Shown in pieces: positions 1,158 to 49,800 of a stretch of 58,546 bases of DNA. The stretch spans positions 62,001-120,546 of IMG/VR virus record IMGVR_UViG_3300013232_000003; one strand, written 5' to 3'. The position numbers were made by a program, and so were the translations under genes. The stretch comes from an uncultured virus (IMG/VR IMGVR_UViG_3300013232_000003) (lineage: Duplodnaviria; Heunggongvirae; Uroviricota; Caudoviricetes). The notes below the pieces were generated by a model that was not told the DNA's origin, searched no databases, and saw only the letters and a program-made list of their open reading frames with translations. Every line of letters begins with the position of its first letter. Position 1 is the stretch's first letter.

Positions 1158-2121
1158 ACATATAGCCGCGATGTTGAAATTGCTGGGCTCGGAAAAAATA
1201 TCGGACTGGAATCACAACCCAGACTGGATCATGGGTACCTGCGTGTTTGCTCCGTACCAGGGTCACAAAGGTAGGAAGGACAACCGACCCTCCTTCGGCG
1301 TGAAGGTAGACAAGATCTCCGGGTATCACTGCTTCGCTTGTGGGAGAAAGGGGAGGCTGTCGATGCTCCCATCGTACTTGGAGATGATCTCGGGCCGGGA
1401 TTTGAAATCGATTAGACAATTCGTCATGGAGCACGAGCACCTTGGGCTCGAGGAGTACGAGATGGAGGAAGAAGAAGCCGACGTCCACATCATGCCCGAG
1501 GGTGTGATGAACAGATTCGTTCGGCTCCAATCCCGAGGGCTAATCGGACTCAACTACTTGCAGAGCCGAGGGATGACCAAGGAAAGCATCGTGCGCTTCG
1601 GATTGAAGTACGACCCCACGAAGAACCGGATCATCTTCCCCGTGAGAAATCCTGCGGGCGATTTGATTGGAGTCCGCGGGCGTACTACGCAAAAGGAAGT
1701 CGAACCCAAGTACCTATCCTACAAGGACATGATGACCGGCCCGGAACCCAAGCGGTGCGGTTACTGGTTCGGGATGCAGTTCCAGCCTTCACCGGGCAAG
1801 CTGCTCATCCTGGTTGAAGGGGAACTGGATGCCATCATGACCCGGCAGGCCCTGGGTAAGGGAACGGTCTGGGCAGCTCAAGGAGCCAGCATCCCCAAGC
1901 GTCAGGTCGAGACCATCAGATCCATGACCACCAACCCCATCCTGATTCTCTTCGACAACGACCAGGCTGGGCATGACGCAGCAGAAAGGCTGGCGCAAGA
2001 GATCCGAGGGTTCGTCCCAAGAATCTTCATGGTGAAGAACTACCGGGGAAAGAACGACCCCGCGGACATGGCTCGGGACGGGGTGCTTCTCAAAGCCCTT
2101 CGATCGATGGAGGAGTCATGA
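1147..2121 (+). CDS. DNA primase (Zn finger + TOPRIM)
   Basis: C..H/HCFACG Zn finger, YLQSRG, RIIFP, LILVEGELDAI, FDNDQAG, NDPAD; GTG 1147 with GGGAG RBS. Confidence 0.92.
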   Translation: MQAKHIAAMLKLLGSEKISDWNHNPDWIMGTCVFAPYQGHKGRKDNRPSFGVKVDKISGYHCFACGRKGRLSMLPSYLEMISGRDLKSIRQFVMEHEHLGLEEYEMEEEEADVHIMPEGVMNRFVRLQSRGLIGLNYLQSRGMTKESIVRFGLKYDPTKNRIIFPVRNPAGDLIGVRGRTTQKEVEPKYLSYKDMMTGPEPKRCGYWFGMQFQPSPGKLLILVEGELDAIMTRQALGKGTVWAAQGASIPKRQVETIRSMTTNPILILFDNDQAGHDAAERLAQEIRGFVPRIFMVKNYRGKNDPADMARDGVLLKALRSMEES

Positions 2122-2492
2122 CCAGAATGAAAACCTACCGTCTCCCGAGTGGAGTTCTCTATCACACTGATAATGGAAGGGAGCAAGAGAAATTGGACAA
2201 CATGGAGTTCGATCACGATGGCTCTGCTGCCGCACGGGAAGTATACCGCAAGCAAGGGAGGATCGATGCTTACAAACTGATGAAGCAAGTCGTGGCCAAC
2301 TTTATCTCCACGGATTCAAGTTGTCCTCCGGAGTTGTTGAAGGCAGAGAAGTACGTGGTTGAAGGAATCATCCAGAAGTTCAACGACATCTTGGAATGGG
2401 AGGAACTCGGTGAGAACAGCGGAAGAAATGGCGAAGGAAACCCTGCGGATAGCTGTGGAAGTGTTCGGTCTGAGGCTGGAACCAGCGGGTGA
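2118..2492 (+). CDS. hypothetical protein
   Basis: ATGA overlap with primase; GGAGG RBS. Confidence 0.6.
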   Translation: MTRMKTYRLPSGVLYHTDNGREQEKLDNMEFDHDGSAAAREVYRKQGRIDAYKLMKQVVANFISTDSSCPPELLKAEKYVVEGIIQKFNDILEWEELGENSGRNGEGNPADSCGSVRSEAGTSG

Positions 2493-3642: not shown

Positions 3643-4983
3643 ATGACGACGCCCATCCTGAGTAAAGAGACGCTCTCGGTTTCAGGCTGGGCGACCGTTC
3701 GTCTGCACAATAAGGCGGAGGCTCTTCGGAGTCTCCGCCTTATCCCTACGGCAGGTGAGAACAATCCTCCCGAGTTCGACAGGCCTCTTCCCCAATACCA
3801 AGAGATGCCTGACGGGACTGTTCTCATCCCGCGGGCTCTTGCAGGGGACGACCGCCTAGTGATTGCTGATCCCGGCTGGCAGATGATGAACCGGGCCTCA
3901 GAAATGAAATCGATTTCATTCCGCACTGGTCAGAAGGAAACCATCGACGCTTGGAAGGCGGGGCTGTCCAATGGGAGCCCCTACGGTGGCATCATTCAAG
4001 CTGTCACCGGAGCTGGCAAGACCTTCATGGGCATCAAGATCGCGATGGATCTGGGCATGAAGACCCTGATCATCGTGCCTCGTACCAGTCTCATGCAGCA
4101 GTGGAAGGACAAGGTTCTCCAGTACACGAACATCCCAGAAGAACGCATCGGCATCGTCCAAGGCACTCAGTTCGATATCGGGGGCAAGGACATCGTGATC
4201 GCAATGATTCACACGCTGGCTCAGAAGGCCGATCGGTTTACCCCGCGCCTCTTCACTAACTTCGGTCTGGTTATCTACGACGAGACCCATGTCCTTGGGG
4301 CCGAGACCTTCTCAAAGACAGCGCCGCTGTTCTGGTGCAAGTACCGATTGGGATTGAGTGCTACCCCCCGCCGCAGCGACGGCATGGACGACGTGTTCTT
4401 CTGGCACATTGGGAAAGTCACCGCCAGATTCACCCGGCTCCAAGCTGATGCTCGAGTACGGATGCTGCCGTATCGTGGTGGTGACGCTGGTCACGAGGGT
4501 TGCTTCTTCGGGGGCAATCTGAACCTTGGTCGGTACTTCAACCGACTCATGAAGTCCCCGAGCAGGACCACCCTCATCGGTGAGATTCTCATGAGGCTTT
4601 ACAACAACGACGAAGAGATCCTCCTGCTTGCCGATCGCATCCAGATGTTGAATAACCTCAAGCAGTACATGATCAACAAGGGGGTACCGGCAAATGAAAT
4701 TGGGCTCCTTACGGGGTCTATCAAGCAGCTCGATAAGAAGGTCATCCTCGGCACGTACGGATCTGCTGGTATGGGAGTTGATATCCCCCGCCTTTCGGCG
4801 CTGGTTCTTGCGACACCTCGAGCCGAGATCGAGCAGGCTGTTGGTCGTGTACTTCGCCAAGGTACGCCGATCGTTGTGGATGTAGTGGACACCTCCTCTG
4901 GGATCATGAAAGGCTGGGCAAAGGCCCGCTTGAAGTTCTACAAGAAAATCTCGGGAGACATAAAGATACACTGCGAACTCTAG
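3643..4983 (+). CDS. superfamily 2 (DExH) DNA helicase
   Basis: AVTGAGKT, DETH, LSATPRR, GVDIP, QAVGRVLR motifs. Confidence 0.92.
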   Translation: MTTPILSKETLSVSGWATVRLHNKAEALRSLRLIPTAGENNPPEFDRPLPQYQEMPDGTVLIPRALAGDDRLVIADPGWQMMNRASEMKSISFRTGQKETIDAWKAGLSNGSPYGGIIQAVTGAGKTFMGIKIAMDLGMKTLIIVPRTSLMQQWKDKVLQYTNIPEERIGIVQGTQFDIGGKDIVIAMIHTLAQKADRFTPRLFTNFGLVIYDETHVLGAETFSKTAPLFWCKYRLGLSATPRRSDGMDDVFFWHIGKVTARFTRLQADARVRMLPYRGGDAGHEGCFFGGNLNLGRYFNRLMKSPSRTTLIGEILMRLYNNDEEILLLADRIQMLNNLKQYMINKGVPANEIGLLTGSIKQLDKKVILGTYGSAGMGVDIPRLSALVLATPRAEIEQAVGRVLRQGTPIVVDVVDTSSGIMKGWAKARLKFYKKISGDIKIHCEL

Positions 4984-4992: not shown

Positions 4993-5643
4993 ATGTCGTA
5001 CCAACAGGAGTACTACCAAAAACACCGGGAACGCATTCTCAAGGACCGCGCCTTGAGGTACGCAAGCGACGAGCAGTATCGAAGCGTAACGCTTGCCAGA
5101 GCCCGGATTTCGAGCGCGAATAGGAGAGCCGTGACGAAGTCGCTGTCCGACACGGTAGTGGTTGCAGGCAGACGAGAGAAGTCTTTCAGAATGATGGAGC
5201 TGCCTAAATACATAAACCGCAGCTACAGTGTCCTACGGCAATGGCTTCGTAGCGGAATCGTGCCGAACCCCTGCTATAAAGATGAAGCAGGGAAGGTAGT
5301 ATTCCCATGGTCCCAAGCAGAGTTGCTGAGATATCTAGTTAGTCACACGGATGGGGGGTTACTAGAAGTCACCTACCCAGAGATGAAAACCGTCCTTCAC
5401 AAGCTCTGGAGGACCCAGTTCAGGGTGTTCGTTGTGATAAAAGAGCTAGAAGGAATCAGGAATGGCAAACGACGAAGAGTTCACCACCAGAGTCGTGGAA
5501 AGCCTGCTCAAGCAGAGGCAAAACAACGGACTCCGATCGGCAAACGGGTTTCTTCGACACGGAAGCCCAATCCCTATGACAGCAAAGGAGCTGCCAGAGG
5601 TGGTCGCAAAGTTCGCAGGGAAGACAAAGGCGTTAAAGCTTGA
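4993..5643 (+). CDS. putative DNA-binding protein (MerR-like HTH)
   Basis: AGGAG RBS; ELPKYINRSYSVLRQWLRSGIVP resembles MerR/excisionase HTH; last ~60 aa overlap the next gene. Confidence 0.55.
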   Translation: MSYQQEYYQKHRERILKDRALRYASDEQYRSVTLARARISSANRRAVTKSLSDTVVVAGRREKSFRMMELPKYINRSYSVLRQWLRSGIVPNPCYKDEAGKVVFPWSQAELLRYLVSHTDGGLLEVTYPEMKTVLHKLWRTQFRVFVVIKELEGIRNGKRRRVHHQSRGKPAQAEAKQRTPIGKRVSSTRKPNPYDSKGAARGGRKVRREDKGVKA

Positions 5644-5848: not shown

Positions 5849-5855
5849 GGAGAAC

Positions 5856-6305
5856 GTGATGCCGATCAAGATGAACAAGAACGCCAGCATCATCCGCAAG
5901 GCCGCAGAAAAGAAATTGATTGGAAAAAAGGGAACCATGGTCATGACCAAGGACAACACCTCCAAGTCTGCCCCGGTGGGAGATGTCGTGAAGTCGGCCG
6001 AGAAGCTGGCTGAAGTACGAGTCGGTATCGGTTCAACCCTCAACATGGGCAACTACGAGAGCCTGCGTCTCGGCGTGGACATCTCTCTTCCCAGCACTGA
6101 AAAGGATCTCGAGAAGACGTTCAACAAAGCCTTGGAGCTGGCTGAGAAGAACTTGGAGCGGATGATCACGAAGTTCAAAGGCCCGCAGAATCAGGTTCTC
6201 CAGCCCGGCAGCTCGAAGCGTTCAGCACAGGAAGTTCTCGACGATGATGAGATTGACGAGGACGATCTGGAGTCGGACAACCCGGACGACGAAGTGGAGC
6301 TCTAA
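5856..6305 (+). CDS. conserved phage hypothetical protein with acidic tail
   Basis: AAGGAG RBS; GSTLNMGNYESLRL motif; acidic C-terminus; directly upstream of RecA. Confidence 0.75.
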   Translation: MMPIKMNKNASIIRKAAEKKLIGKKGTMVMTKDNTSKSAPVGDVVKSAEKLAEVRVGIGSTLNMGNYESLRLGVDISLPSTEKDLEKTFNKALELAEKNLERMITKFKGPQNQVLQPGSSKRSAQEVLDDDEIDEDDLESDNPDDEVEL

Positions 6306-7908: not shown

Positions 7909-8836
7909 CCATCTGATCCAGTCGTACCCTCCCGTAGACGAAGGGAGGTTGTTCGACCCAACGATCCATGTGTCGAACCTAATCGACTTCTGCCCAAAAG
8001 AGTTCTGGCTCTGTCGGGAGCACGGGAGAAGCTACCACCAACGGATGTACATCGGAGTCAGAACGGGATGGGACTTCGACCTGGGCCACGCCATCCAACG
8101 CATTCAGGCTGAACGGCTATCCCTACGAGGAGTGCTCTATGGCACCTGGAAATGCCTACACTGCGGAACTCTTGAGTTACGGTACTATCGAAAGGGCGTT
8201 CGGTGTTCCTCTTGCCGAGCAAAGGCTTCCACCCCTGTCGATACTACGCTTGTCAGGGAAATCGGAGTTATCAGCGTTGTTGGAAATGTTGATCTGTTCC
8301 CTATCGTCCAACTCAATCCCCCCAAGCTCGCCGTCTGCGACTCCAAGTCCATTAAGGCTGAGGACTTCGATAAGCTCAACGGGCCGCACGTGGGCTACCG
8401 TAGGCAGGTCCAACTATACATGGGTCTTATCGCCAGAGGGGCTAAAACCCTGCCTCACGTTCGAGTCATCGACCCCTTCCCGGAGGTATGCACGGAGACG
8501 GCGGTAATCGCCTATGCCTCCAAGGGCTCGCGGCCGATGCCATTCAAGCAGTTCGACGTACAGCAAGACCCAGAGTTCATTGCCAACGTGGAAGAGAAAC
8601 TCCAATCGCTTTCAATTCATGTGTTGGAGGGAACCTGTCCACCGCAGCAGTGCGGATCGATGTACGACATGATGGCCAAGAAGTGCGCCGTCCGGGACAT
8701 CTGCTTCATGTACAACCAAGGTCAAGAACCCCCGCCACCGGAGCCTCCTCTGGAATTTCCAGACCATGCCCTGATTCCAAGGGTAGATGCCAAATTCTCC
8801 AGAACCCGACGAGTCGTAAAGGAGCCCAAGCGATGA
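7880..8836 (+). CDS. Cas4/RecB-like PD-(D/E)XK exonuclease
   Basis: N-terminal SNLIDFCPK, GNVD..DSKS, QVQLYM, C-terminal Cys cluster typical of Fe-S staple nucleases. Confidence 0.75.
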   Translation: MPEYAAIVGDHLIQSYPPVDEGRLFDPTIHVSNLIDFCPKEFWLCREHGRSYHQRMYIGVRTGWDFDLGHAIQRIQAERLSLRGVLYGTWKCLHCGTLELRYYRKGVRCSSCRAKASTPVDTTLVREIGVISVVGNVDLFPIVQLNPPKLAVCDSKSIKAEDFDKLNGPHVGYRRQVQLYMGLIARGAKTLPHVRVIDPFPEVCTETAVIAYASKGSRPMPFKQFDVQQDPEFIANVEEKLQSLSIHVLEGTCPPQQCGSMYDMMAKKCAVRDICFMYNQGQEPPPPEPPLEFPDHALIPRVDAKFSRTRRVVKEPKR

Positions 8837-9075: not shown

Positions 9076-9449
9076 CCGACCTCCAAGAACTTCAGGCAGA
9101 GACTCTCAAGAAGATAAAGCTTGCCATGTTGATCCCTATCAGCAAAGCTCTGATCGACGATTTCACGATCGATCGTGGCTCGGATCTTTACGCTGGGATG
9201 TACTACGACAAGCTGAAGAACATCTTCTGGGGGAAGTGGGCAGAAAGTACTGTGGTTGCTAAATACCCACAGAATTGGTGGGAGCATCTCAAAGAACGTT
9301 GGATGCCCTACAAGCTTCGGAAGAAGTTCCCGATCAAGTACACAGAAGTCCGAGCTCAAGGTGGAGTAGTGTTCCCTGTAACCAAACTACCAAATGGGAC
9401 GTTCATCTGGAGAAGCGGGAACGAAGTATACGACGAGGAGAAGAAATGA
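9072..9449 (+). CDS. hypothetical protein
   Basis: AAGGAG RBS; coupled overlaps on both sides. Confidence 0.7.
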   Translation: MTDLQELQAETLKKIKLAMLIPISKALIDDFTIDRGSDLYAGMYYDKLKNIFWGKWAESTVVAKYPQNWWEHLKERWMPYKLRKKFPIKYTEVRAQGGVVFPVTKLPNGTFIWRSGNEVYDEEKK

Positions 9450-9970
9450 AATTGATTGGAATAGATCCGGGGCTTGATGGTGCCGTGGCGATCATTCACA
9501 CGGCCAGCGGTCTGGTCCTGATCAACGACACCCCCATTACCACAATGACCAACGCCGGGGGCAAGAAGAAGCGCACGTTCCTGGCCCAGGAGATGGCCGA
9601 TCTTCTCATCCCGTTCGAAGACGACGACGTACACGTGTTCATCGAACAGGTCGGGGCCATGCCCAAACAGGGTGTTTCCTCCGTGTTCTCTTTCGGCAGG
9701 GGGTATGGGATATGGATTGGTATTACCGCCGCGCTGAGACTGCCCACAACATTCGTAACACCTCAACGGTGGAAGAAGGTGATTATGGATGGGATCGCGG
9801 ACAAGAATGCTGCGAGGCTCAGAGCACAGCAGCTTTTCCCAGCGGTTGCCCCTGCCATGAAGCTGGTGAAGCACGACGGACGCGCAGAAGCGCTTCTGAT
9901 TGCGGAGTACGGCCGTAGATCTCTTGGGCTCCAGTACAAACAGAAGGAACTGCCACTCAAAAAGAGGTAG
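9446..9970 (+). CDS. ruvC: RuvC-like Holliday junction resolvase
   Basis: IGIDPGLDGA, FIEQV, FSFGRGYG, DGRAEALLIA; ATG 9446 with GAGGAG RBS. Confidence 0.88.
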   Translation: MKLIGIDPGLDGAVAIIHTASGLVLINDTPITTMTNAGGKKKRTFLAQEMADLLIPFEDDDVHVFIEQVGAMPKQGVSSVFSFGRGYGIWIGITAALRLPTTFVTPQRWKKVIMDGIADKNAARLRAQQLFPAVAPAMKLVKHDGRAEALLIAEYGRRSLGLQYKQKELPLKKR

Positions 9971-10688: not shown

Positions 10689-11122
10689 GAACGGAACTGG
10701 TAGTTGTAGTTTCCACGATCGGGCTACTGTGTGCTCTGGCAGCCGTAGAGATGTATAGGAAGTACTTCCCAAAATCCCACAGGTCATCGGGGATGACTGA
10801 GGAACAGTTTCAGGAGTACTGCCGTATCACCGAGAGGATCAAACGGGATGCTCTGGAAGTCCAAAAGCCAAAGCCCAAGAAAAAAGAACCGGTCTACCAC
10901 TGCGTCCTCAGTGTGACCATGACGAATAACTCGACCGAAGAGTGGTCGAACACCAGTTGGACCGGAGTGGCCCGGGAGTTCTACAGTTGGTACTTCGGAC
11001 GACCGCAGAGCGAGTGCTTCATAATGAAATCGATTGGAAAGGACGACCAGCGTTCAAGACAGACGGTAATCCTTCGCAAGAACATCTACTCCATCCACAC
11101 CTTCTGGAGAGTAAAAGCATGA
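10685..11122 (+). CDS. membrane-anchored hypothetical protein
   Basis: N-terminal hydrophobic segment; ATGA overlaps on both sides. Confidence 0.6.
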   Translation: MRTELVVVVSTIGLLCALAAVEMYRKYFPKSHRSSGMTEEQFQEYCRITERIKRDALEVQKPKPKKKEPVYHCVLSVTMTNNSTEEWSNTSWTGVAREFYSWYFGRPQSECFIMKSIGKDDQRSRQTVILRKNIYSIHTFWRVKA

Positions 11123-12906: not shown

Positions 12907-13076
12907 AGCGAGCCAAGAAGGCAGAAGTGACGGTGCAGACAGTCGAACAGAAGATACGATCGGTAGTCTGTCCACACTGCCACACTACACTCAAGGGAAT
13001 AGGCGGCGGGGACTACACAAAGCGTATCTCTTGCTGGGAGTGTAATAATCCAATCGATTTGATTCAACCGGAGTAG
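12903..13076 (+). CDS. small Zn-ribbon protein
   Basis: CPHC...CWEC; ATGA overlap. Confidence 0.6.
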   Translation: MKRAKKAEVTVQTVEQKIRSVVCPHCHTTLKGIGGGDYTKRISCWECNNPIDLIQPE

Positions 13077-15184: not shown

Positions 15185-15213
15185 ACTGAAATCGATTTCA
15201 AAAGGGAGCCGCC

Positions 15214-19645: not shown

Positions 19646-19668
19646 AAATTGAAATCGATTGGAATTCG

Positions 19669-26785: not shown

Positions 26786-26815
26786 ACTGACCTCCCAAAA
26801 ATGAAATCGATTGGA

Positions 26816-33765: not shown

Positions 33766-36458
33766 CTGCCCTTGCCTTTGTCCACCGCCCCGGAAATGGT
33801 TCCACTATTCCCCGCACCGCTTATGTCGAGCGGGGTTGTGCCTATAGGTTCGATACACGCGGCCATGCCTCGAGGACCGAAGAACTCCTTCAAGCTCCCC
33901 CGATCGACGGCGGGCCGGGTGCTGCCAAGGTTACGGAAGATCCCGCGGGGGCGGTAGGTTTTCCATGGGATCGTCAGCACCAACCTGTCGGTCACGATCT
34001 CCGTGGCCGATCTGTAGAACCCAATGATCTCCGCGATGGAGAAGGCTCTTGGGAATCGTGCGATGTCCTGGAGTGCTCCCTTGAAGGGCAGGGTGACGTC
34101 CCCGACCCCATCCCGGAAGGCCCCAATAGCGGATTGGTCACAGGTGAAGGTGCCGATGGTAGTGCTGTCCATATCGGAAAGCACTCCGTCGATGAAGATC
34201 GCCCTGCACGACTTCGAGTACTGGATACACACGAAGTGGAACCAGACGTTTGGCTTCGCCGTTGCGGTTGAAGTCAGGGTGAACGTGGACATGACATCAT
34301 CACGGAAGTTCCAACGCAGGGCTCCCGTGGCCGTCGAAATTGAAATCGATTGGAAAGGTGCCGTGTTCCCGTTGCGGGTCTCTGAGAGAATGGTTTGGTA
34401 TGTTTCCCCGCTGGTGTCGTCGTACTTCGCCCAACCCATGACGGTTCGTTCTTCCGAGTTCGGCAGATTGGATGCGTCTGGGAACGTGAGATAGTCAGCG
34501 GAGGTCCCACCAAATAGACACGCGGGACGATTCACTCCAGCAACGGGCGTCTGGCCAACCGTACCGACCACGGTGCCGTGGACCCCGTTTCCAGACTCAT
34601 CCTTCGCGAAGACGTTTCCGTAATAGTCAGACCCCACGCCATTCAAGCGGTGCAAGGTCAACGGACGGTTCTTGAAGTAGAACCCAACATCCTCTCTTGG
34701 GTAGAGCTTATGTGTCGCAGACTTCCTAGCCCTTATCATGATGGGCTTGTACCACGGGGAGTTCCTGTGGTAGTTGTCCGCGTAGAAGTTGCAGAACAAC
34801 CGCGGGGGATCTGCCTTCGGAATGCACGCCCATCTGTAGTAATCGAGTACCTCTTGAGCGAGCATACCTCTACGAAGCATCACAGCTTGCTGCATACTGC
34901 CCTTGAACGGATTTGCCCATCCACCGCTATAGGAGAGGTAGACTCCAAATAAACAGTAGTTGTAGCTCGAATACGCGTCGGCGGTGCTATCGGTATGGTC
35001 CACCAACTTCCCGTCGAGATAAAGATCAATCCAATTGGTGTTCCGGCGGGTGAAGACAACGTGGTGCCATCTGCCGAACTGAACGGAGCCAATCTGGGAG
35101 TACAGGTTGAAAGACAGATAGTTCACCCCGTTCGAGGCATACGCCCGAAGCCTCATGTTTGGAAGGTCTACATAGAGCCCCCCAGCCGAGTGCGATGGAT
35201 TATAGAACAACTCTTCGTAGATGAATGCTGGCCCAGCTACGGTGGCGTCCAGATTGAACCATATAGAAAAGGTGAAGTCAGACACGGCATGGTTAGCGAA
35301 AAGGCTAGTCGCTTGGACAATTGCCCGGGATATATAGTCGGCGGTTGTCCCACCAAACTTGAGCCCTCCGCCGAACTTTCCAGTGCCCTGAACCACGTTT
35401 CCAAACTTAGTCGCTACTTCACCCCCACCAGAGGTATACGTTGGCCCACCACCAAGATTATGAACGGTGGACCCAGCCAACGTCTGCATTGGGAGATAGG
35501 CCGCTAACCGCGACTGGCCTAGGAACGCCCGGTGGTCACTTCTATCCAACTGCAATGGACTAGTGCTACTCCTTCGGAACTGGGTGACCGGACGATTCTT
35601 GTACGTGTAGAGCAGGTCGACCGGGGTTGTCGCCTCAGTGAGTTTTCGACCACCAGATCCAAGAGGATCAATGCGATCGGACACCGTCATGAAGTTCAAG
35701 AACCCGCCGCCAAGCAGCCCACTGGCAGGTCCGATGTGGCTCTTCCAGGGCAGTGGCTCAGTGGACCACCTGTAGTACTCCCAGATTTCTTCCTGGGAGA
35801 AGGCCCGCTTGTAGACCCCGAACTCCTCGATCCGCCCCGTGAACTGATTTATCCCGGAGGTGTGCCATGCGAGGCCCATGTTCGAATAAGTGTTAGCTGT
35901 GGACAAAGTGGCAATCGTAATCAGGTTCGTGGCCTGATGAACGCCATCAATGTACAAATGCCGCTCCGACTTGGACACCTGAACCAGAGCCACATGATGC
36001 CACTGATCCATCTGGAGAGTTCCAGCGGGCGTCTCCACCGTCGCCTGAGTGGAAGACGAGTCAGTCATGTTTACTGCCAGTGCCCGGTTCGTCTGGTTCA
36101 CATAGAACTTGAGGTAGTTGGCAGTGGTACTACTCGTACCTTCCGAATAGATCATAGGAGCTGCCTGTGCCGTGATCTCAGGGTAGATCCAGGCAGAGAT
36201 AGTAAAGGCCACCTCGTTGGACATCTTGTAGGTGTTGAAGTAGATGTAGTTGTTCGAGGCCATGAATCGGTAGGCTGGACCTCCCCATCTACCTCGACTA
36301 GAGCCGAGAGTCCCGGAGACTACAGTGCCAGTGGCATTCCCACTAAGGTCGCGGACAGACTGGTTGAGAGGAAGCAGCAACGAGCACGTAGCTGTTCCAA
36401 AGAACTCCTTTAAGCTGCCCCGCCTTGCGGCGGGGCGCTTGAACTTGCGAACGTCCAC
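33762..36458 (-). CDS. LamG/concanavalin A-like repeat tail protein
   Basis: Three LamG domains (FTISAWI..QWHHVALV..LYIDG etc.) plus the start of a fourth at the C-terminus. Confidence 0.85.
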   Translation of the reverse strand: MDVRKFKRPAARRGSLKEFFGTATCSLLLPLNQSVRDLSGNATGTVVSGTLGSSRGRWGGPAYRFMASNNYIYFNTYKMSNEVAFTISAWIYPEITAQAAPMIYSEGTSSTTANYLKFYVNQTNRALAVNMTDSSSTQATVETPAGTLQMDQWHHVALVQVSKSERHLYIDGVHQATNLITIATLSTANTYSNMGLAWHTSGINQFTGRIEEFGVYKRAFSQEEIWEYYRWSTEPLPWKSHIGPASGLLGGGFLNFMTVSDRIDPLGSGGRKLTEATTPVDLLYTYKNRPVTQFRRSSTSPLQLDRSDHRAFLGQSRLAAYLPMQTLAGSTVHNLGGGPTYTSGGGEVATKFGNVVQGTGKFGGGLKFGGTTADYISRAIVQATSLFANHAVSDFTFSIWFNLDATVAGPAFIYEELFYNPSHSAGGLYVDLPNMRLRAYASNGVNYLSFNLYSQIGSVQFGRWHHVVFTRRNTNWIDLYLDGKLVDHTDSTADAYSSYNYCLFGVYLSYSGGWANPFKGSMQQAVMLRRGMLAQEVLDYYRWACIPKADPPRLFCNFYADNYHRNSPWYKPIMIRARKSATHKLYPREDVGFYFKNRPLTLHRLNGVGSDYYGNVFAKDESGNGVHGTVVGTVGQTPVAGVNRPACLFGGTSADYLTFPDASNLPNSEERTVMGWAKYDDTSGETYQTILSETRNGNTAPFQSISISTATGALRWNFRDDVMSTFTLTSTATAKPNVWFHFVCIQYSKSCRAIFIDGVLSDMDSTTIGTFTCDQSAIGAFRDGVGDVTLPFKGALQDIARFPRAFSIAEIIGFYRSATEIVTDRLVLTIPWKTYRPRGIFRNLGSTRPAVDRGSLKEFFGPRGMAACIEPIGTTPLDISGAGNSGTISGAVDKGKGR

Positions 36459-37572: not shown

Positions 37573-39213
37573 CTATTTGAACACCCTGAGTATTCTGTGC
37601 GTAACCGTGCCTACCGGAACGGTCTGGTAATTGGACGGGGGAGTCCATCTCACCCAGGCGTAGGCGGTGTCCCCTGGCTCGATCCTGCCCAAGTCCAGAT
37701 CGATCTGGTTGTACCCGTAGTCCAACAGCCGAGCTTCAGCTTCAGTCTGACCCGCGGTGGCATAGGTCATTTTGGGAGTTCCGGCAGACGACGTAAACCG
37801 CACCGTGACGTACCCCGCTTCGGCCATGTCGTTACGGAATCCGATCTTCTGGTAAACGTGGTTGAAAGTGCTGTTACGAGACGGCAGCACAAGTTCGGTT
37901 CCGTCTTCCGTAAGGTCGGAGCCATTGATGCTGATCGTGATTCCCAAAAGCAGGTTCTCTCGCAGTTCCTGCTTGGCGGAAAACATCGGGAAGAGGGTCT
38001 CCCACTTGTTCCAAACGGTGGAAGTCTCGCTGTAGTAGTAGACGTTGGACCCAGCCCCGTAGATGAACGCAAACCCGGAGGCGAATCTATTGTGAGGAAA
38101 CAGGGACAGCCCATCCGGCCCTTGATAGTGAGGAGTGAGCAGACCAGTTATTGAACTGCTTGCCGACACGGGGTAATAAGACGATGCCCAAGAAGGGCTC
38201 CCAGCCGCGATGGCGTTTGAGGACACCCGAAGTATGACACGATCATAGTGCTCGTCTGCCGGGGAACTAGCGTTGGTTTCCAAATAGGCCATACCGCCGA
38301 AGTTGTTACCACTGACTCCAGGGGCGGGGTAGATAGGTGTTCCCCACGTTCCGGTGTCTACGTCTCCCCTAACTAGGGTTGGGGTGGTTATGTATGTGCC
38401 ACGTTGGTACGTTAGCTCCAAATTCATACCACCGGTCGGCGCACGTCGGAGATAGAGCTGGGGATTGATCGTGTTGGAGGAGGAGTTGTAGAACTCCCCG
38501 AGGCTTGTCCAAGTGCCGTTGGTATTGCGTCGTACGACCTGGACGCGGTACCTCAGATCGTTGCTGCAATACGCTATCACAGGCTCATAGGTGGTTGGGT
38601 GGAACGTGAGAGAGAATGCCCCCGCGTACTCCGAGCTAAACTGCATGGCTGGAGTTCCAGCCACGGAAATCACATCGATTTCACTTCCCCACCCAGAGGA
38701 ACTGTTCCACACCAACATGTAGATCTTCTTGTCAGTGTTAAGCTCTGCCCACAAAAGCACTATCTCGTCGGTGCCACCAGCCCCAGCCCGCCAATATGAC
38801 TTTAACCAAGTGTACCCAGAAGAAACGGAGCGATCACCAGAAGGAGCTAAACTGGTACTCCACGTGCCATTAGAGGCCCGAGTGTACAGGTATATCCTGT
38901 TCTTGTATGAAGAAGTGAGGGTGGACCCCAACACGAACAGCTTGGTACCAGCAGGATTCATGTGGCATTGGTGCCCACCTCCAATGGGATAATCCGAGCC
39001 CGTGAGCTGTAGAGTTTCGAAAGCCCACGTGGCTCCGTAATCGTCGCTGTACGCGGCCATATGGGCGTATGGGGCAGACGACTTGCCGTACGAAAAGTAC
39101 AGCCGGTTCCTGCTGGTGAGCACGAGCCCAGGCATAACATGTTTAGCGTTCCCACTGAACATGCTCTGGCCGCCAACGTAGGCGTTGGCTACTACCAGTA
39201 CGCTTGTTCCCAC
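37573..39213 (-). CDS. tail protein with BNR/Asp-box beta-propeller-like region
   Basis: YSDDYGATW Asp-box; repeated NGTWS/T motifs. Confidence 0.7.
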   Translation of the reverse strand: MGTSVLVVANAYVGGQSMFSGNAKHVMPGLVLTSRNRLYFSYGKSSAPYAHMAAYSDDYGATWAFETLQLTGSDYPIGGGHQCHMNPAGTKLFVLGSTLTSSYKNRIYLYTRASNGTWSTSLAPSGDRSVSSGYTWLKSYWRAGAGGTDEIVLLWAELNTDKKIYMLVWNSSSGWGSEIDVISVAGTPAMQFSSEYAGAFSLTFHPTTYEPVIAYCSNDLRYRVQVVRRNTNGTWTSLGEFYNSSSNTINPQLYLRRAPTGGMNLELTYQRGTYITTPTLVRGDVDTGTWGTPIYPAPGVSGNNFGGMAYLETNASSPADEHYDRVILRVSSNAIAAGSPSWASSYYPVSASSSITGLLTPHYQGPDGLSLFPHNRFASGFAFIYGAGSNVYYYSETSTVWNKWETLFPMFSAKQELRENLLLGITISINGSDLTEDGTELVLPSRNSTFNHVYQKIGFRNDMAEAGYVTVRFTSSAGTPKMTYATAGQTEAEARLLDYGYNQIDLDLGRIEPGDTAYAWVRWTPPSNYQTVPVGTVTHRILRVFK

Positions 39214-40850: not shown

Positions 40851-43800
40851 CGCACCGTCCTCCCCTCACGCCGATTCACTTCGTTAATGGCGTCCACAAG
40901 CTTTTTCTTGTTGATCTCAGTAGTACGCACCTCGACTACTCTCTCCCCGATCATCAGGTTCAAGTTCACCGTGTCACCAGTCCCACTGGTAGAATCGGAA
41001 GCGATCACTGGGCCGCCCGTTGCCATTGCTACCTTGGGGGCCACACTCACCGCCGCGTTGGCCATCCGATCCAATGGCATCACGGAGGGGGGTACAGCCA
41101 TCTGGTTCAGGGCAGAAATGAAATCGATCCCGTATCGCTTGACGGCTTCCTTGCGGATCACGAACTCCCCGGACTCCGCAATGATATCGATCCGGTCCCC
41201 ACCGCCATACCCAGGAAGATGCCCACCTGTGGAGAACCCCAGCCCACCTCCTGTAGGAAGTAGGTTAACCGGGTTCTTGAACCTTCTCTTATGACTAGAC
41301 GAGGAAGAAGCTTTGAACTTGGACGATTGTGGTTGCGAAGGAGCCGATGCCCCACTGGCAAAACGCCCTTTAACCTGACCGCCTTTGGCAAACCCAAGAC
41401 CTCCGTTAGAAGGCAAGAGTGTGATTGGGTTCTTGAACTTTTTCTTGTGCTTGGACGAAGACGTCGCCTTGAGCTTAGACGAATCAGTTTTAACAGAAGC
41501 CGAAGCTCCGTTGGCAAAGCGTCCTTTAACTAGACCCCCTTTAGCAAATCCGGTGGCGGTGTTGCCCTCCCGCAGCGCGTCCTTCATCTTTTGAACAGCG
41601 GAATCAAGGTCTTTTTCCGAGATTGTGGTCATGGCATCATAGAAATCTGAGTAGATCTCCTCACCCTTGGGGGACTCGAGCAGTTTCTCCGAAAGAGCCT
41701 TGCCCTCCTCTACGGCCTGCAAGGTCTCTTCCACCGAGTTCTTATAAGCTTCGCTCGTCCTGTCCGCGCCCGGCCTGTCAACCACTTCGTCGAGTGAATC
41801 CCTAAAGGACCCGTCGAGGAATTTAGTAGCCTCTCTGACGACTGACGGTGGAAGCGGGGTAGGAGTTTTCTTTGAATCGACCTTCGACGCATCGCCAGCC
41901 GCTTCTGCTCCGGGGGGTTTTGGCAAAGCATCCGGAGTTCTGGACGAAGTGAGGCCCACGGACTCCGCCAAGCTATCCAGTTCAGCCTGGGTAATCGTGT
42001 CTTGGTACTTAGCAGCCTCGGTCCCCGGCACTGGTGCTTCATTGACATTGGATTTCTTGCTAGTAGGCTGCTCGTTGATGTAGGAACTGTCCTTGCCAAA
42101 TTCCTCATATAGATCAGAGAAAGACGCGTCCGCCGCTTTCTCTGTGGATACCTTAGGGGGCTCCGGAGGCTGAGCCACTTTGACCATTCCTTTGGTAGCA
42201 GCGACCTCACGCATCTTGGCTACTGTGGCCTCAGGAGCTGCCTTATCAAAATAATCCGTCGATGCGATCTCGTGGTTGCTATCAATAATCACGAGACGAC
42301 CATCCGGGAGCTTTCTGACATTATCCAGGTGAAGATCCGTAATCATCTGCACCTGCTTGCCATCGTTCACATAGCGATAGTAGGTCTGTGGGTCCCCCTC
42401 AGCCTGAGTGTACCCGCGGTCGGTCATAGTGCGGACAACTTCCTCTACTGTAGGAGCCACGGTTCCAGCGTCGTTTTGTACCCAGGTCGCTTGCTTGCGT
42501 CCGAACTGGTCGATCCAATGCCCGGCATCTTCCATAGATGCCAGATCCCCAGGGTTCACGGCTTGATCGTCATAGATCTTCCGTGCTCTCCGATACTGGA
42601 AATCCGCCTCTGTCTCATTAGGCCTAGGCTTACTGATCTTCAGGATCTTTGGGCTATCCCCCCGCTGTTCGGCACCAAACGCGTTTATCTCCACACCGCT
42701 GCCCAACTGCTTGAGGCCAGCAAGATCAGGACCCTCGAAGGTCAAAAGGCCAGTCTTTGGATCTACCACTTGGTTGAGACGGAACCGGCGGTTGGGGTCC
42801 GGATGAGCAAGGTCGTAGGCTGCTCGGAACCGAGTCCACTCTGGTTCCGTAATTTCGAGATACTCCTGGGTCGCGGGCGGAACGGCAGCAGCCACGTCCT
42901 TCGGTTTTGAAATCGATTTCATTTTCTCAAACTTCGCCTGGGCGGCTCGCTGTGCAGCCGGAAAGAGCGGGTCCGGTACCCAGTCCCCATTCTTACCACG
43001 AATGTACGCATTGACGATCTTCAGACCGCTGTCAGGCCCGGCGTCACGGAAGGCATAGTTCTTGGTACCCACCTGCTCAGTCTGGAAGTTGCCGACATCG
43101 TCGAGCACAAGGGACTTCTGACGACTGGTAGAATCGGCCGCGGTGTTCCCGCGGGCTCCAATATCTATCATGGCAGCGTTCTCAGCGGCCCTGCGTTTAG
43201 CCGTAGTGGCATCATCCACTACCGTGTCAGGTCCGCTGCGGAGGCTCCTCTTGCCAAACCCTGCGCCCCCAGTGGCCATCAACTCAATGCTTCCATGACC
43301 ATTGGCTACAGCGACTCTCCGGACCAAATCCATGTATGTAGCCCCAGGCATGTCAAGTACGGACAATACCATTGGGCTATGGGAGAACTGAGTTCGTAGC
43401 TTTGCCACATTCAACTGCTGTGGCGTCAGAGCGGAGATAGGCGACATCAGATCTGGAAGAACCGTAGTCCCAGGAGCTGCTTCTACCTCATACAGGGAAG
43501 CGTCTCGATAGGGCCTGCCCTTCGGGTCAAGTGTGCCCTTCTTACCCTCGATCAATTTGGCGTAGTGCATCGCGGCCTTAACGCGATCGGCAAAGTAGGT
43601 GCCCTGCCCTTGCGGGCTCCAGAAACCACCCTGATCCCCAACCTCAGCCACGCCCCAACGCTTCATGGCCTGCTCAGTAGCCTCGAAGGCACCTCTACCA
43701 CGCGATCCCCCGTGCCATAGGATCTCCCCAGAGGTATCGATTGCCAGCTCTTCGAGCACCCTCTCCATGGTGGCTACCCGCTCACGGAGCACCTGACCTT

Positions 43801-46800
43801 CTTTTCCAGTTCTAGCATCCTCGCTCAAGGCCTTGTACTTGGCCTTCAGTCGCTTCATCTGGTTGTACGCATCTACTGTCTTCTGCCCGCGAGTAACAAA
43901 CGCGGACACAGAAGACGCGTCACCAACGGTCTCGTTCACGTTTGAGGAGAGATCTTGTCCTTGACCCTTGCCCTTGCCCTTGCCCTTGTTCTTGCCAGTA
44001 GGCTTAGCAGCCCGTGGACCATGCAGCCCCAAGGCCTCCATGATTGAGAAGGACACCGCCTCCTCGGCCGCTCCTTCGAGTCCACCATTCCAGCCACCCT
44101 TGATCGATCCCACCCCGATGGCCGTTGCTCCTCCAACCAGCTTTTGCTTGAAGTCGCTGGCCCCGAGCTTCTTCGCGAGGCCGACCGTGGGGATCTTTGC
44201 CCCATGGAGAATGGCACCGAACAACGCCGCTTCCGGGTCTCCCGGGTTGCCAGCAAACCACGTCGCGTACTGCTGTGCATACGGAGCTATGGCACTGGTG
44301 AGCTTCCCAGCCGCCGTACCGGCTCGGGCCTTTGCTACTTGGGCAAAGGCCTGCCCAACCGCTTTACCTGCGGGGGCACCAACCGCAAGGGCCGGGAGCA
44401 TGGCCATGAGCCCTTGTCCAAACCCTTCACCCTCTTTGGCCGCAAACGCTTCGCTGCCCATGTTGGCCAGCTTGGCGACGTTGCTGATGGCCGCGTACTT
44501 GGTGTCTCCGCCAAAGGCATCAACGATATACTTCTCGACCTTGGCCAGAGGATTCGCGATGGCTCCTACACCAGTGGACAGACCACCAGCGATCGTGCGA
44601 GCGATGATTCCATCAGAACCCCCAACCCCTCCGCGGCTCGCAAGCTCTTCCAGATTTTCTTTACGGAGATTCTCATCGGTCCAACTTGCTCCGTATGCAG
44701 CCATAGTCTGCACTTCACCCCAGAGATTCTTGAGCTTGCTGGTAAGAGAGCTAGGGGGTTTCTGAACGCTGCCCCCATCCGCAAACATCTGAACCAACCC
44801 ACCCTCAGAGAACATCTTGTTGGGGTTGTAGTAGTTGCGGTAGCCAGAGTACTTCCAATAGTGGCCGGGTGCCTTGCTCTTGACCTTGTTCTTATCCTCA
44901 ATCTTCCCAGAGGTTTTCTCCGTGGAGTCCTCCTCGGAAGAATCGGTGTCTTCTGTCTCGTCTGTTTTTCCAATCGATTTCTTTTTCTTCTTGGTGACTT
45001 CTCCGCCAGTGGCGAACTTGGACACCCGGCCCTCGTTAAGGGCAGCGATGTTGTGAGTCCCATACTTTTTGACGGACTCCTTGCGAAGTACAAATTCTCC
45101 CGGCTCGAGCAGCGCGGGCACGGTGTCACCACCTCCATACCCAGAGATGTGTCCACCGAAGGCTTTTTTCTCCGTCTCTACGGCGGGTCCAGTGCTCGTC
45201 CCCCCTTCCGTATAGGAGGAAGAAGGAATGTAGGTCTTATAGGATTGCTGTACCTTGCTGGCAGTTTCTACAAGCTGGTCCCCAGTGCTCTTGATAGCTG
45301 CGTTATACGCTTCCGAATCAGTCTTGATCTTTTCGATCTGACCAGCCCGCTCGAGAGCCGCGCCTGCAAGAACGTCCTTGAGCTGGGTAGTTGCCTGTGT
45401 GATGTCTGCGGTAATGAACATGGAGAGAGGGTCACCGCTAAGATCATCATACCCAGTATCGATACTGAGCTTAGTCATACTCATGAACTTTTCCGCGAAC
45501 TGGGAAGGAACGCCACTGCTTTCCAGTTCACCGAGTAGAGCCAGGGTAGCCGCCTCTACAAATCTGCTTTGATCCACTTGATCAAGTTTGGAAAATACTG
45601 AGTCGGCCTCCTGCATCACCGATAGGAGTTTGGTCTCCAATGCAGGACCCAGCTTCTCCTTGTAAGGCGCAGTTCCCGGGGAGGCATAAGCGCCCATTCC
45701 GGTAGTGAAGAACGAAGAGTAGTATGCCGCGAGCGCTCTCCTTGATCTACGCTTCTGCTGTTCAGCGTCGGGAGTAAGGAAATCGATGAACTCCCCGGGT
45801 AAGGACAACAGCTTCTTGGCAGACTTGATTGCCCGCTTCGCAAAGCGCTGCTCTTCGGCCAACGCGTCTGCCTTAGTCGCTTCAGCAGCGTGCCCTGCCA
45901 TGGTGGCAGCCTTCTTTTCCTTTTTCTCCTTGGCAGCCTGTTCACGGGCAAGCTTGTCTTCGACCTGATTTTGAAGTTCTTGAACTCGCGCGTCGGCAGT
46001 GGTTTGTACGTCCTTTGGCTCGAGTTCCCCAAGAGCGACTTTGACTTTGTCCAGTGCCTCTAAGAACGCTGCGGTGGCAACCGGCTTGAGCTCGAGACCC
46101 CCAAGCCGATCGATCTCCGCCTTGATTTTGCCAAGTATGTTGTGAGCCTCGCTCTCCGCAGTCTCGAGAGCCTTGACGAATTGGTCCTCCGTCATCATAT
46201 TGGCTTTGAACCGTTCACCAAGAGCCTTCTTCTCGTCCTCGTGAGCCTTGGCCGCAGCTTCGAACATGTCCTTCAGAGCACGCCACTGAGCGTAGGAACC
46301 CTTCTTGGGGTCTGGCAAAACGAAGGCTTCTTTCCCCTCCTTGGCCACATCGGCCATCGCCTTCATTACAGAACTCACCCTGTCAAACTTGGCTTCAAGC
46401 TTTCCGTGGCTGTCCCTGAGCTGGAAGTCGAAATTCTCTTCCTCTTGGGCAACGTCGGCAATTGCGGCCGCGGCCTTCTCAGCTTCAGTCGGGATGTTCG
46501 TGAACACCCCAGCGAAGTTGGGGTGAATCTTGTCAGTACCCGGAGCCAACTTGACGGCAGCGAGCTTGGCCAGACTATCCGTGGCCTTGTCCGCTCCATT
46601 CTTGATCTTGTCCAGATCGTTGATGATCACCAGTCCCTTTTCCTGATCGAAGAAAATCTTCACTGGGAGCTTGGTACGGAGTTGGGAAGCAGAGACCCCC
46701 ATCTGCTGCATGATCTGGTTGGTAGAGACCCCAGCGGCGCGGGCATCGTCCATCCTGTTGGTCAACCGTCCAACTCCGTTGGCGACGTTGTTTACAAGAC

Positions 46801-49800
46801 CTGCGGCCTTCGCGGTCTGGGAGTTGGATACCCCGAGAGAAGAATTGAAATCGATTTGACTTCTATTGCGGCGGGTATCGCTAGTTTCCCGCATCTTGTC
46901 TTCGCGGTAGCGCTTGGCGATAGTGGTTCCCTTAGTGCCGCCGGAGATATCAACTCCTTCTTCGTTCAATCCAGCCTTGTCCAACCCGGACGTTTTTGAA
47001 ATACGTTCCCATCGTGCCTCGATCGAGGCACTGATGGCGTCGAGCTGGCTAAGGTACCCAATGTTGATCCTCTGTCGCTCCGCCACAGCGTCCATCGCGG
47101 CCTTCATTGCGTTCGCGTACATCCGGGACGTGCTGGCGATGTCCTCTTCAACGTCTTTCGTACCCGTGAGCAGTTCACGCAGTTTGTCGTAACCGGTAGG
47201 GTCTTTCTTCGCCCGCTCAGCATTCTCGTCTTGGTACTTCTTTTTGCGTTTGAAGTACTCATCCTGCCCGGCGATCGTGTCCTGCTGGTCCTTGCTCAAA
47301 TTCTTCCAGCTATCCTCACCAAACTTGTGAACGATCTTGATGAGTTCGGCTTGTTTGGCTTGGAGCGCAAGAGCAGACTTTGCAGCCCCCGAAAAATCCC
47401 CAGCCTCTGACAGCTTCCGGTATTCCTCTTGGAGTTCCCGAATCTCCCCTCGTAGGAGTGGGATCTTCTCGAACTCTGGCATGTCAGACGGAGTATTGAG
47501 GTCCTCGAGCACGTCGCGGTTCTTACGCTGCTGCTCGATGAATTCGGATTGCAGCTTGTTGAACTCCGTGTGCATTGCCTGCTGATCGGAAAGAGCTTCC
47601 TGGCGAAGAGTCTTGACGTTCTTTCTAACTTCGTCGAGCGCGATCCCGTAGGCCTGTGCAATCCTCTCTGGCTTCAATTCGTCAGGGATGGTCTCCTTAT
47701 TCAGTAGGAGCTTGTCCGCGTAGGCCTTTACCTTGTCCAGGTTGCCAAGTACTTCCGTGTAGTAGGTCTTAATCAGGCCAAGCTTCTTCTGCGTGCCAGA
47801 TTGCAGAATCTGCACCTCAGCGTTTTGATTGACGTCGAAGTTCACGAAGCCCATTCGAAGTTCGGCAGAGTACTTGGACTGAATCTCGGACAGCGTCTGG
47901 TAGTACTCCCGCATCCGATTGGCCGCTTGCTTCGTGGTCTCCCCGATATAAGCACCGAGCCTACGGCGTTCGGCCTCGGAGTCTGTCAGCGAAGCGGGAA
48001 GAGCTCCCCACTTCATGTTGCTCAGCTTGCGTTGAGCATCAACCACGGCTTGCTGCCGCCTCCTCAGACCTTCCCAATACGACCAAGTTTTTGGCTTGGC
48101 CTCGTCTACTTTGGTTACCATAGTGCTCAAAGTAGACTCGTACTTGGAAAGCTCCCACGTGAGCTTGGACACCTCATCGCTCTGTGCCCGGTACTCAGCA
48201 GACCCCATAAGGTCGAACAAGGACTTCTGAAGATCGGTGTTCTTGCTGACCATTCGGTCGCCCATCATGAACAACATGCCGTTTCTCTGAACTTCTTTCT
48301 GGAAGGCGTTTACCTTCCAGACTTCAGTGGAGTTCAGTAGCTGAGCCATGCTGGCGTACGAACTACGGTAGGCTTCGACCGCGTCCCTGGACAGGTAGAA
48401 CTCATTGAGCGACCGCTGTTGAGCAGCCACCATCTCCTGACCCCAAGTCTTCACGGCCTGAGAAACATCGGACAAGTCATCGGCGAGCAGCCCAGCGATC
48501 CCGGCAATGCCTTCCTTCTTGTTACCAACAGTCTCATCCAAGTATCGGATCAGATCGTCGATGTTGACCTTGTCTCGGCGAAGCTCGGTGTACCCATACA
48601 TGCGGATGGTTTTTACATGGGCCTCGATAGATGCAAAGTTATCCTGTAGCAGCTTCTTGACCCGATCCAACTCCTCTTGGATTTCCGCTCGATTTCCAAA
48701 AAGCCCGAACGACGCGGTGTTGAACCCAAGCTTGGTCTCCAGTTCTCGTTGGAGAATGAAGAGCTTCTGGTTCCGGAAGGACATGATCTTAACTTCTTCA
48801 AGGGCCAGTTCCTTGACCCTCTCTACCCGCTGTTCTCCAGACAGTTTGGCAGAACCTTCGACGGCATCGATCTCCTTGGACATTCCACGGATAACAGAAG
48901 ACATGTCGAAGAACTTCGGGGGCTTGGCAATTTCTTCCTTGAGACCGGCCAGAGCCATTTCGGCGTCTTCGACAACCGTGGTGTATTCTTCCCATGCCTT
49001 GTACGCAGTGTATCCAGCTACCGCGGCGACGGCCACCCCGATAACCCCGATGGCAGCAGACACCCCTTGTAGAGTAAGCACCAGAGCCTCAGCAGTAACC
49101 CCCATCTTGCCCAACAGGCCCACGAATCCGGTGCCTGAGGCCATGGCCGTGGTGATGTACGTGTGCATGGAGGCCATCTGAGTGCCGACAAGCTTTGCGG
49201 CAGTGTTGCCGTTGGCCATGTGAAGAGACAACAGCTTGAATCCTTCAGCCCCGCCAGCGGCTGCAACACCAACCCATCTGAGACCAGTGATCAAGGACTT
49301 GATGGCCCCAAAGCCCGCCCCGACAGAAATAGTGGCAGAGGTCAACAGAGAGAGACCGCTGGCAATACCCGAAACCGCGAAGCTCGTAGTAGCAATTGCT
49401 GTGGACAGAAGGCCCATGGCAGCGGCGGTCTTCAGCCCTGTTGCGAGGAAAGTCTCCGTAAGTTCATTGCCCCCGCGGACCAAGTCCGCGAGTATCTGCA
49501 ACGCACTGGTTCCATACTGGATGAGCTCCTTCAACCCACCAGTTGTACGTTCACCGATGGCGACGTTCAAAGCGGTGAAGGAGTTCTTCAGCTTGGCCAG
49601 AGAACCTTCCAGGCTTTCGGTGCGGGTTTTGGCAACGAGCTGATCCTTTCCGTACTCCTCGGTCTTGTCCATCAAGTCAGTGATGGCGTCCTTGTTATTA
49701 CGGAGCATCTCGAACAGCGCGGCCGCGCCAGCTCCAGCCCGTTGCTGGAAAAGCTGCATGAACTCCTTGGACACTTCTACTTTGGTAGACCCGCGCAGAG

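Follow-up and report, generated by a model that had tools for sequence, protein, structure and literature searches.

A genome-wide array of 14-bp palindromes in an uncultured siphovirus and c69 as its candidate binding protein

Sites, counts and placement

The stretch of DNA treated here (the window, 58,546 nucleotides) comprises bases 62001-120546 of the record of an uncultured virus of the Caudoviricetes (IMG/VR IMGVR_UViG_3300013232_000003), which was analysed as a whole record of 120,546 bp with terminal repeats (G000 in the following; coordinates without prefix refer to the window). According to open reading frame (ORF) and domain scans, this virus is a siphovirus with a DNA polymerase A carrying a UDG domain, RecA, ThyX, an HK97-type head and a gene for a tape measure protein of 5182 amino acids. 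Throughout the 120-kb genome, copies inside genes included, a 14-bp palindrome recurs about every 2.5 kb, and the candidate binder of these sites is an unannotated protein, c69, which is encoded outside the window. A sequence-only reading of the window had described an array of about 20 such sites, with at least 11 exact copies on the plus strand and three perfect palindromes. All 20 of its sites bear the motif, while its list was incomplete, since the sites at 8601 and 23807 had been overlooked. The features of the array in the window are as follows:

1403..1416, site in the primase gene, LKSIR frame
3905..3918, perfect palindrome in the helicase gene
5911..5924, site close to the 5' end of a gene for 149 amino acids
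7320..7333, site in recA
8601..8614, site added here
9447..9460, site that provides the TGA stop codon of ORF 9072-9449
11025..11038, site in the dGTP diphosphohydrolase-like ORF
13049..13062, site on or close to a gene junction
15187..15200, perfect palindrome, intergenic, 3' of thyX and ahead of a stretch resembling a ribosome-binding site
16222..16235, site in the DNA polymerase A gene
19650..19663, site at the convergence of two gene arms, adjoining a hairpin with a T-run
22285..22298, site in a tail gene
23807..23820, site in a tail gene, added here
26802..26815, intergenic site
28168..28181, site in the fn3 tail gene
30493..30506, site in a laminin-G tail gene
34341..34354, site in a laminin-G tail gene
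38670..38683, site in a gene for 546 amino acids
41119..41132, weak site with three mismatches in the tape measure gene
42908..42921, perfect palindrome in the tape measure gene
44969..44982, site in the tape measure gene
46846..46859, final site ahead of the site-free stretch
46860..58546, site-free stretch, 11.9 kb on the circular map when G000 1-336 is included, covering the tail tube genes and the tape measure gene in its 5' part

In the window, 21 sites lie within two mismatches of the palindrome or of the TGAAATCGATTGGA form, and the exact form TGAAATCGATT was re-found 11 times on the plus strand and three times on the minus strand, the latter three being the perfect palindromes at 3905, 15187 and 42908. 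The sites at 15187, 19650 and 26802 are indeed intergenic, and the reported lack of copies past 47 kb is borne out by zero sites with up to two mismatches after position 46860. Outside the window, the array spans G000:C1:337-61207. Over the whole genome (120,405 bp, terminal overlap excluded), 14, 37 and 46 sites were counted at zero, up to one and up to two mismatches, respectively. Resampling of synonymous codons with all proteins kept gave 0.03, 0.8 and 4.4 sites at the same thresholds and a 5th-order Markov null gave 0.1, 0.55 and 3.4 (40 runs each with a maximum of 7 sites; the motif forms were picked from the same data). The array thus amounts to 10 times the codon null at up to two and about 45 times at up to one mismatch, which is the enrichment over a codon-preserving background on which the sequence-only reading had staked its array. 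A RecA search of IMG/VR returned no close relative for a comparison of synonymous sites, while at the protein level c69 sequences 82-88% identical to that of G000 are on record (P0066-P0068).

The full site covers about 22 bp, as 4-5 A/T-rich bases flank the 14-bp core on each side. Half-sites in G000 are either TGAAATC or TCCAATC, and their pairings in 49 sites (18 GA/GA, 18 GA/CC, one CC/CC and 12 other) are about random. A second c69 paralogue was considered as the source of the TCC half-site and discarded, because none is present and the half-sites combine about randomly. The central CG is present in 38 of 45 sites.

With regard to placement, 20 of the 49 sites are at the 3' end of a gene or at a junction (5.4 expected), so that about 40% of all sites occupy such positions, three to four times the chance level. 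Sites often overlap an ATG or supply a TGA stop codon (G000:C1:42818, 56397, 57460, 71447; SM1 3840, 80846), which may be a cheap origin of sites at gene junctions. Another 21 sites lie well inside genes and occupy two frames (12 and 9), with zero in the frame opening with TGA; the earlier view of a signal at the DNA level is thereby upheld. Spacing is even, with a coefficient of variation of 0.53 in G000 compared to 0.99 in a null matched for junction and in-gene sites, and it is more even than the matched null in eight of nine long genomes (P<=0.001; L338C on 99 of 110 kb), the ninth being relative G041 (P=0.06). Asymmetric sites of G000 are oriented 10 versus 8 (6:4 in the rightward arm and 4:4 in the leftward arms). 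Since the half-site classes pair about randomly and no orientation exists genome-wide, the plus-strand bias noticed earlier is local to the window, whereas the contrast drawn with oriented stoperators stands, as asymmetric sites do not follow transcription.

c69 and the array in related phages

By motif scans, the same array was found in IMG/VR viruses that share just 25-37% protein identity with G000 (21 records retrieved, among them the unrelated G013), and these relatives fall into the same group as Pseudomonas phage SM1 (Samunavirus) and Aeromonas phage HJ05. Protein clustering yielded four candidate binders in common with G000, namely a ParB_N protein, a MerR-like helix-turn-helix (HTH) protein, a replication initiator and c69, the counterparts of which are SM1 gp050, DLP5 gp066 and RcZahn gp66. 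Three of these genes are located as follows:

G000:C1:43392-44366, plus strand, c69, unannotated protein of 324 amino acids and predicted binder, outside the window amid replication genes
G000:C1:19655-20392, minus strand, ParB_N gene two genes upstream of the small terminase gene, with the perfect palindrome 20404 at its ribosome-binding region
4993..5643, plus strand, MerR/Xis-like HTH gene (phrog_19880), disfavoured as a rival binder

Homologues of c69 were found in 59 cultured phage records, RHph_I4 carries the gene, and at E<=1e-30 the c69 family numbers 502 clusters, possibly too many because of low-complexity tails. Nine of the cultured phages were examined (SM1, HJ05, DLP5, L338C, JP1, RcZahn, SIO-2 and, over 60 kb each, KarBoss and VP-RY-9), three of which infect Vibrio, and all nine hold a 14-bp dyad array in lineage-specific versions of TG[A/C]A-N6-T[T/G]CA. 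The carriers include phages of Pseudomonas, Rhizobium, Vibrio and Stenotrophomonas, and the hosts range over Alpha- and Gammaproteobacteria, with RcZahn growing on Rhodobacter and L338C on Rhizobium. SM1 holds about 30 copies of TGCAA[G/A]CG[C/T]TTGCA, HJ05 about 26 of the TTGCAAC..GTTGCAA type, DLP5 27 of TGCAAT..ATTGCA, L338C 43 of TGCAAC..GTTGCA and JP1 33 of TTGCAAA..TTTGCAA. Of the eleven genomes tabulated, six have few or no sites with a central CG; such sites number 0 of 36 in DLP5, 0 of 29 in RcZahn, 3 of 82 in G041 and 0 of 28 in KarBoss, and in L338C the CG is replaced, too.

Homology to c69 gave 134 further loci (L numbers in the following), 50 of which were kept as non-redundant (at least 5 kb, readable core, at most 90% identity). 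Two or more family sites are present in 38 of these 50 (240 sites versus 31 in shuffles), and the remaining 12 loci comprise six with a clear variant dyad, two with a weak one and four with none. The lineage of L465 and L464 carries a 13-bp dyad, TGCAAC-N-GTTGCA, which is one base under the norm and still lies upstream of c69, and the distant locus L481 holds TCCAAT..ATTGGA twice, a dyad of the half-site class that is the minor one in G000. In the assembly of a Paracoccus isolate (L562, G042 contig 206), all 48 exact dyads are found on a 96-kb phage contig, possibly an extrachromosomal prophage, and none in the other 5.3 Mb. No published description of the array or of c69 was found for Samunavirus, DLP5, VHS1/SIO-2, L338C/RcZahn/JP1, DUF3102 or dispersed ParB-linked palindromes of phages in what were mostly open-access texts without supplements, and the string 'palindrom' is absent from the available text of the DLP3 paper (PMC7326821).

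In 24 of 28 training loci and in 26 of 47 new loci (3.8 expected; in nine of the latter, the locus's own dyad served for scoring), a site is found no more than 200 nt ahead of where c69 starts. Among 16 other gene families this share is 0-38%, at most three of eight, and the counts for the other candidates are 2 of 23 for ParB_N, 0 of 20 for the MerR-like gene and 2 of 11 for the initiator. Typically, the site stands directly ahead of a TTGAC-like -35 box, and the variant motifs are upstream of c69 as well (L465, L464, L531, L460, L463), usually 8-20 nt before a TTGAC-like hexamer. In G000, the perfect palindrome G000:C1:42818 precedes TTGACA-17-GATAAT one short gene before c69. This arrangement is that of an autoregulated repressor, from which we infer that c69 is regulated by the binder of the sites, most simply by c69 itself.

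Proposed mechanism and rival explanations

An AlphaFold2 (AF2) model of the c69 core reached a predicted local distance difference test (pLDDT) score of 84.7 and was compared with 48,161 solved chains. The top row was the ParB DNA-binding domain on parS (6s6h; Z 7.0, root-mean-square deviation (rmsd) 10.8, 119 residues aligned), followed by Spo0J 1vz0 (Z 6.0, rmsd 3.0, 91 aligned) and KorB (8qa8, Z 5.8; 1r71, Z 5.0); VirB and SopB ranked further down. For residues 133-179, a match to MazE9 in its N-terminal domain was obtained (Z 3.8). A ParB CTPase domain was not found in c69 by alignment, and PF02195 matches only the separate gene at G000:20060-20323. A viral library confirmed the homology of c69 to SM1 gp050 and weakly listed DUF3102 proteins, and the matches in the ESM Atlas are viral clusters without names. 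The predicted homodimer scored 0.48 compared to 0.01 for the best control, with contacts agreeing to at least 62% and a pLDDT of at least 76, and 20 of 30 solved dimers as well as one of 23 monomers attained the mark used. Its interface would comprise residues 133-182 with cross-strand pairs at about 138-141, resembling a ribbon-helix-helix (RHH) fold. The dimeric protein postulated by the sequence-only reading hence has a counterpart in the predicted dimer of c69.

In our opinion, the palindromes are probably bound by the phage-encoded c69. Each subunit of a c69 homodimer would read one half-site with its ParB/KorB-type HTH domain, dimerisation would be brought about by the C-terminal RHH-like domain, and the tails are predicted to be disordered, acidic and Lys/Ala-rich, with no ParB CTPase domain attached. 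Bound just upstream of the -35 box, the dimer would repress its own promoter and some other sigma70-type promoters; of 401 sites, 27 precede a sigma70-like -35 box (2.7 expected), so that few sites are promoter-proximal. The dimer would also occupy the evenly spaced sites found at intervals of 2-3 kb across all genes, and there it cannot serve to repress initiation. In these positions, c69 would most likely organise the phage DNA from sequence-anchored points, bridging or compacting it via a flexible linker and basic tails and dampening transcription genome-wide, in total a KorB-like action minus the sliding clamp. This model as a whole, in which a c69 homodimer binds the sites, represses itself and organises the genome, is of moderate probability. 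Among the roles offered by the sequence-only reading, silencing and organisation remain.

Several observations weigh against this model. All Z-scores of the fold comparison are below 8, a level the tool calls common, the RuBisCO factor Raf1 (Z 6.0) sits among the ParB rows, and searches with c69 by Foldseek, Pfam and PDB sequence gave no relevant match. The pass of the dimer prediction may stem from likeness to solved RHH dimers. The first relatives were chosen through the motif itself, and no clade member without c69 was found, so that co-occurrence alone could reflect shared ancestry; additionally, the distant c69 loci L479 and L480 (13 and 21 kb) show no dyad. The distance from site to c69 is 561 nt in G000, with one gene between (485 nt in G002), and a strict promoter filter was passed by none of the 49 G000 sites. 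The 11.9-kb site-free stretch is the only such gap in G000 (P about 0.006 at a uniform rate), which means that tiling need not be complete; in eight relatives, the widest internal gaps measure 4-7 kb, and no long internal duplication in the tape measure protein was found that would explain the gap of G000. Finally, a residue-to-base code (Ala giving TGAA, Thr/Ser giving TGCA), fixed beforehand as a prediction, failed out of sample. In training, Ala at the G-W-x-K motif went with TGAA in six of six rows versus one of 22 others, with two independent origins (approximately unbiased (AU) test, p 3e-7; the tree omitted G020 as a duplicate), but there were only two independent pairs (sign test p 0.5). 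Among the new lineages, L474 has Ala and TGCA, the Thr/Ser lineages L554, L513 and L470 have mostly TGAA, and L454 and L444 carry Ala (56% A) and Thr, respectively, at this motif. Across 50 lineages, no alignment column is clearly outstanding with regard to site type.

With respect to the binder, a host regulator of the LacI/CcpA family, acting as a decoy target or co-opted by the phage, is the least probable candidate. The operator consensus of this family is TGWAANCGNTTWCA, and operators of the LacI/GalR/CcpA type are of even length with an invariant central CG. This shape, which the sequence-only reading had seen in the sites and from which it had drawn its decoy option, fits G000 and loosely SM1 and JP1, but the CG is lost in DLP5, RcZahn, L338C, KarBoss and G041, 13-bp variants exist, the hosts span two proteobacterial classes, and the site is tied to the c69 promoter. 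In the Paracoccus assembly, the only host covered in this way, the copies are confined to the phage contig, which speaks against a decoy. LacI HTH (PF00356) was found in none of five genomes at E<=1, with control genomes being positive. A host LacI-type binder is unlikely on these grounds. Very doubtful as well is the MerR/Xis-like HTH protein as a binder acting on the palindromes in the manner of RacA. While its gene is conserved in G000, the G001 clade, SM1, HJ05, SIO-2 and DLP5, and RacA with its MerR-like domain is reported to bind a 14-bp palindrome with TG and CA ends at 25 regions (PMC4914108), it was found in three of five complete genomes, was not detected in RcZahn and G041, both with arrays (possibly a limit of sensitivity), and had no upstream site in any of 20 cases. 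In a split ParB system, c69 would bind the sites and recruit the separate, CTPase-like ParB_N protein, which would then spread for modification, partition or packaging. In favour of this arrangement, which we deem improbable, the gene after c69 encodes ParB_N in the SM1/G001 clade and is followed by a ParB-ParB-methyltransferase-like gene, the ParB_N gene of G000 lies beside the terminase gene with a site at its ribosome-binding region, and DLP5 DNA is reported to be heavily modified (PMC5834331). Against it, loose searches, which may miss it, did not detect ParB_N in RcZahn or SIO-2, both with the array (in RcZahn, neither ParB_N nor the MerR-like gene was detected), and upstream sites are as scarce as given above. 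Moreover, the ParB_N proteins would by alignment have no space for an HTH, a point on which the ParB_N model, confident only at residues 21-113, is neutral, and close homologues of ParB_N occur in 435 phage records versus 59 for c69.

Other explanations accept c69 as the binder and differ in what the array is for. The sites could serve immunity or silencing of a plasmid-like prophage or carrier state, with the dimers as promoter blocks and roadblocks, i.e., as symmetric stoperators, an option regarded as unlikely though less so than the rivals named so far. For DLP5, with array and c69, replication in the form of a phagemid prophage has been reported (PMC5834331), and DLP3 is reported to form stable lysogens (PMC7326821), from which it follows that the same system may silence a plasmid-like prophage. 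The 96-kb c69 phage contig within the Paracoccus assembly points in the same direction, as does the excess of sites at gene junctions. Likewise, no tyrosine integrase (PF00589) was found in G000, serine recombinases being covered only via general ORF scans. On the other hand, the sites are unoriented relative to transcription and few are near promoters, the relative UF_RH6 has been described as lytic, and c69 is located amid replication genes. Silencing overlaps with the organising role, and the main difference is when the protein acts. Alternatively, the sites may be tags, with c69 as the marker, by which phage DNA is recognised as self in nuclease protection, in recombination, in the restart of replication or in packaging. 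The even spacing through late genes does exceed the needs of promoter control, and HNH, endonuclease I, RuvC and RecA genes are encoded by phages of the array group; yet this proposal has no direct support, and a gap of 11.9 kb is tolerated, which makes it a long shot.

A bolder version of the organising role is a tentative conjecture and rather unlikely to hold in full: a CTPase-less ParB-type nucleoid protein of phages, maybe with a separate ParB CTPase module, would fold and mark the whole chromosome in a large lineage of siphoviruses, the cultured members of which come from at least six host genera, and the even spacing of 2-3 kb, kept despite its coding cost, would represent an organising code instead of operators.

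Known systems, other genes and meaning

The closest analogy may be drawn to KorB on its dispersed OB operators, without the features of the ParB/KorB clamp. KorB is described as a CTPase sliding clamp that acts together with KorA on plasmid RK2 (PMC11790492). As judged from fold rows 8qa8 and 1r71, c69 would share the ParB-family DNA-binding domain, and KorB operators, too, are reported both near and far from promoters, with repression where the operator adjoins the promoter, as proposed for c69. In contrast to KorB, c69 shows no ParB_N domain and would dimerise by an RHH-like tail, and the phage genomes of its group carry 26-82 evenly spaced sites. What the proposed system would have in common with ParB-parS and Noc-NBS (PMC7383237) is a palindrome read by a dimeric ParB-type HTH. 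The G-W-x-K motif, near-invariant in c69, may, by pattern and not by computed alignment, correspond to the second helix of ParB, G201 to R204 of which are reported to contact DNA as well (PMC7383237). Unlike ParB, c69 shows no CTPase domain, and no adjacent ParA was seen; no ParA/IncC ATPase was found among 141 (Pfam) or 96 (PHROGs) ORF stretches of G000, a dedicated six-frame search not being included. A TTTCA run is common to both site types, pointing outward in G000 sites and inward in parS, and the phage sites tile the genome whereas parS clusters at the origin.

Cluster O mycobacteriophages, which have no integrase, are reported to hold more than 30 dyad repeats of 17 bp, about a third of them inside genes, unoriented and mostly off promoters, with no binder identified in the available part of that report (PMC4351075). 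Both arrays consist of dispersed, unoriented dyads that lie partly in genes, and an AAA ATPase family is common to both phage groups; sequence and spacer differ, and Catdawg has a different dyad and only a low-complexity match to c69. Cluster A stoperators, as described in the same source (PMC4351075), resemble the array in being many repressor sites across a phage genome, but they are asymmetric and oriented with transcription, unlike the symmetric, unoriented sites of G000. RacA and its ram sites in Bacillus subtilis offer 14-bp palindromes with TG and CA ends at about 25 places and a role in DNA organisation, yet RacA is reported to have a MerR-like fold and GC-rich sites (PMC4914108), and the MerR-like gene of the phages is disfavoured as the binder.

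Further genes of the virus are listed below:

40847-56395, minus strand, tape measure protein of 5182 amino acids with PhageMin_Tail at residues 2021-2216
10942-11442, dATP/dGTP diphosphohydrolase domain
G000:C1:20415-23259, papain-family peptidase and outer-membrane beta-barrel gene, late arm
G000:C1:46211-53146, DUF1257-like, DUF2997-like and AAA ATPase genes, common to the SM1 group

The C-terminal 2383 amino acids of the tape measure protein gave weak matches in three cultured records only, and its length implies an unusually long tail. The diphosphohydrolase domain, together with a glycosyltransferase and a methyltransferase encoded at G000 1146-3019, may be a sign that the DNA or the virion is modified, and the outer-membrane beta-barrel gene suggests a diderm host. 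The C-terminus of the G000 ParB_N protein is RHH-like by pattern. Right after c69, G001:C1:32053-37787 and SM1 gp051-gp055 hold ParB_N, ParB-ParB-methyltransferase-like, second methyltransferase and helicase-like genes, likely a DNA modification block of which G000 has only its ParB_N. Cluster O mycobacteriophages, whose dyad array is their own, also encode the AAA ATPase of the G000:C1:46211-53146 region.

Dispersed palindrome arrays of phages have been described before without a binder in the parts of the literature available, e.g., in Cluster O mycobacteriophages (PMC4351075). In the present case, a candidate binder can be named along with its putative operator and naturally varying sequences, all of them in cultured phages, some with harmless hosts (RcZahn and L338C), which makes the function of such an array directly testable. 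If the model is true, a clamp-less member would join the ParB/KorB family, and c69 could explain how DLP5 keeps its plasmid-like prophage quiet. Additionally, the lineage-specific pairs of protein and site may provide orthogonal DNA-binding parts.

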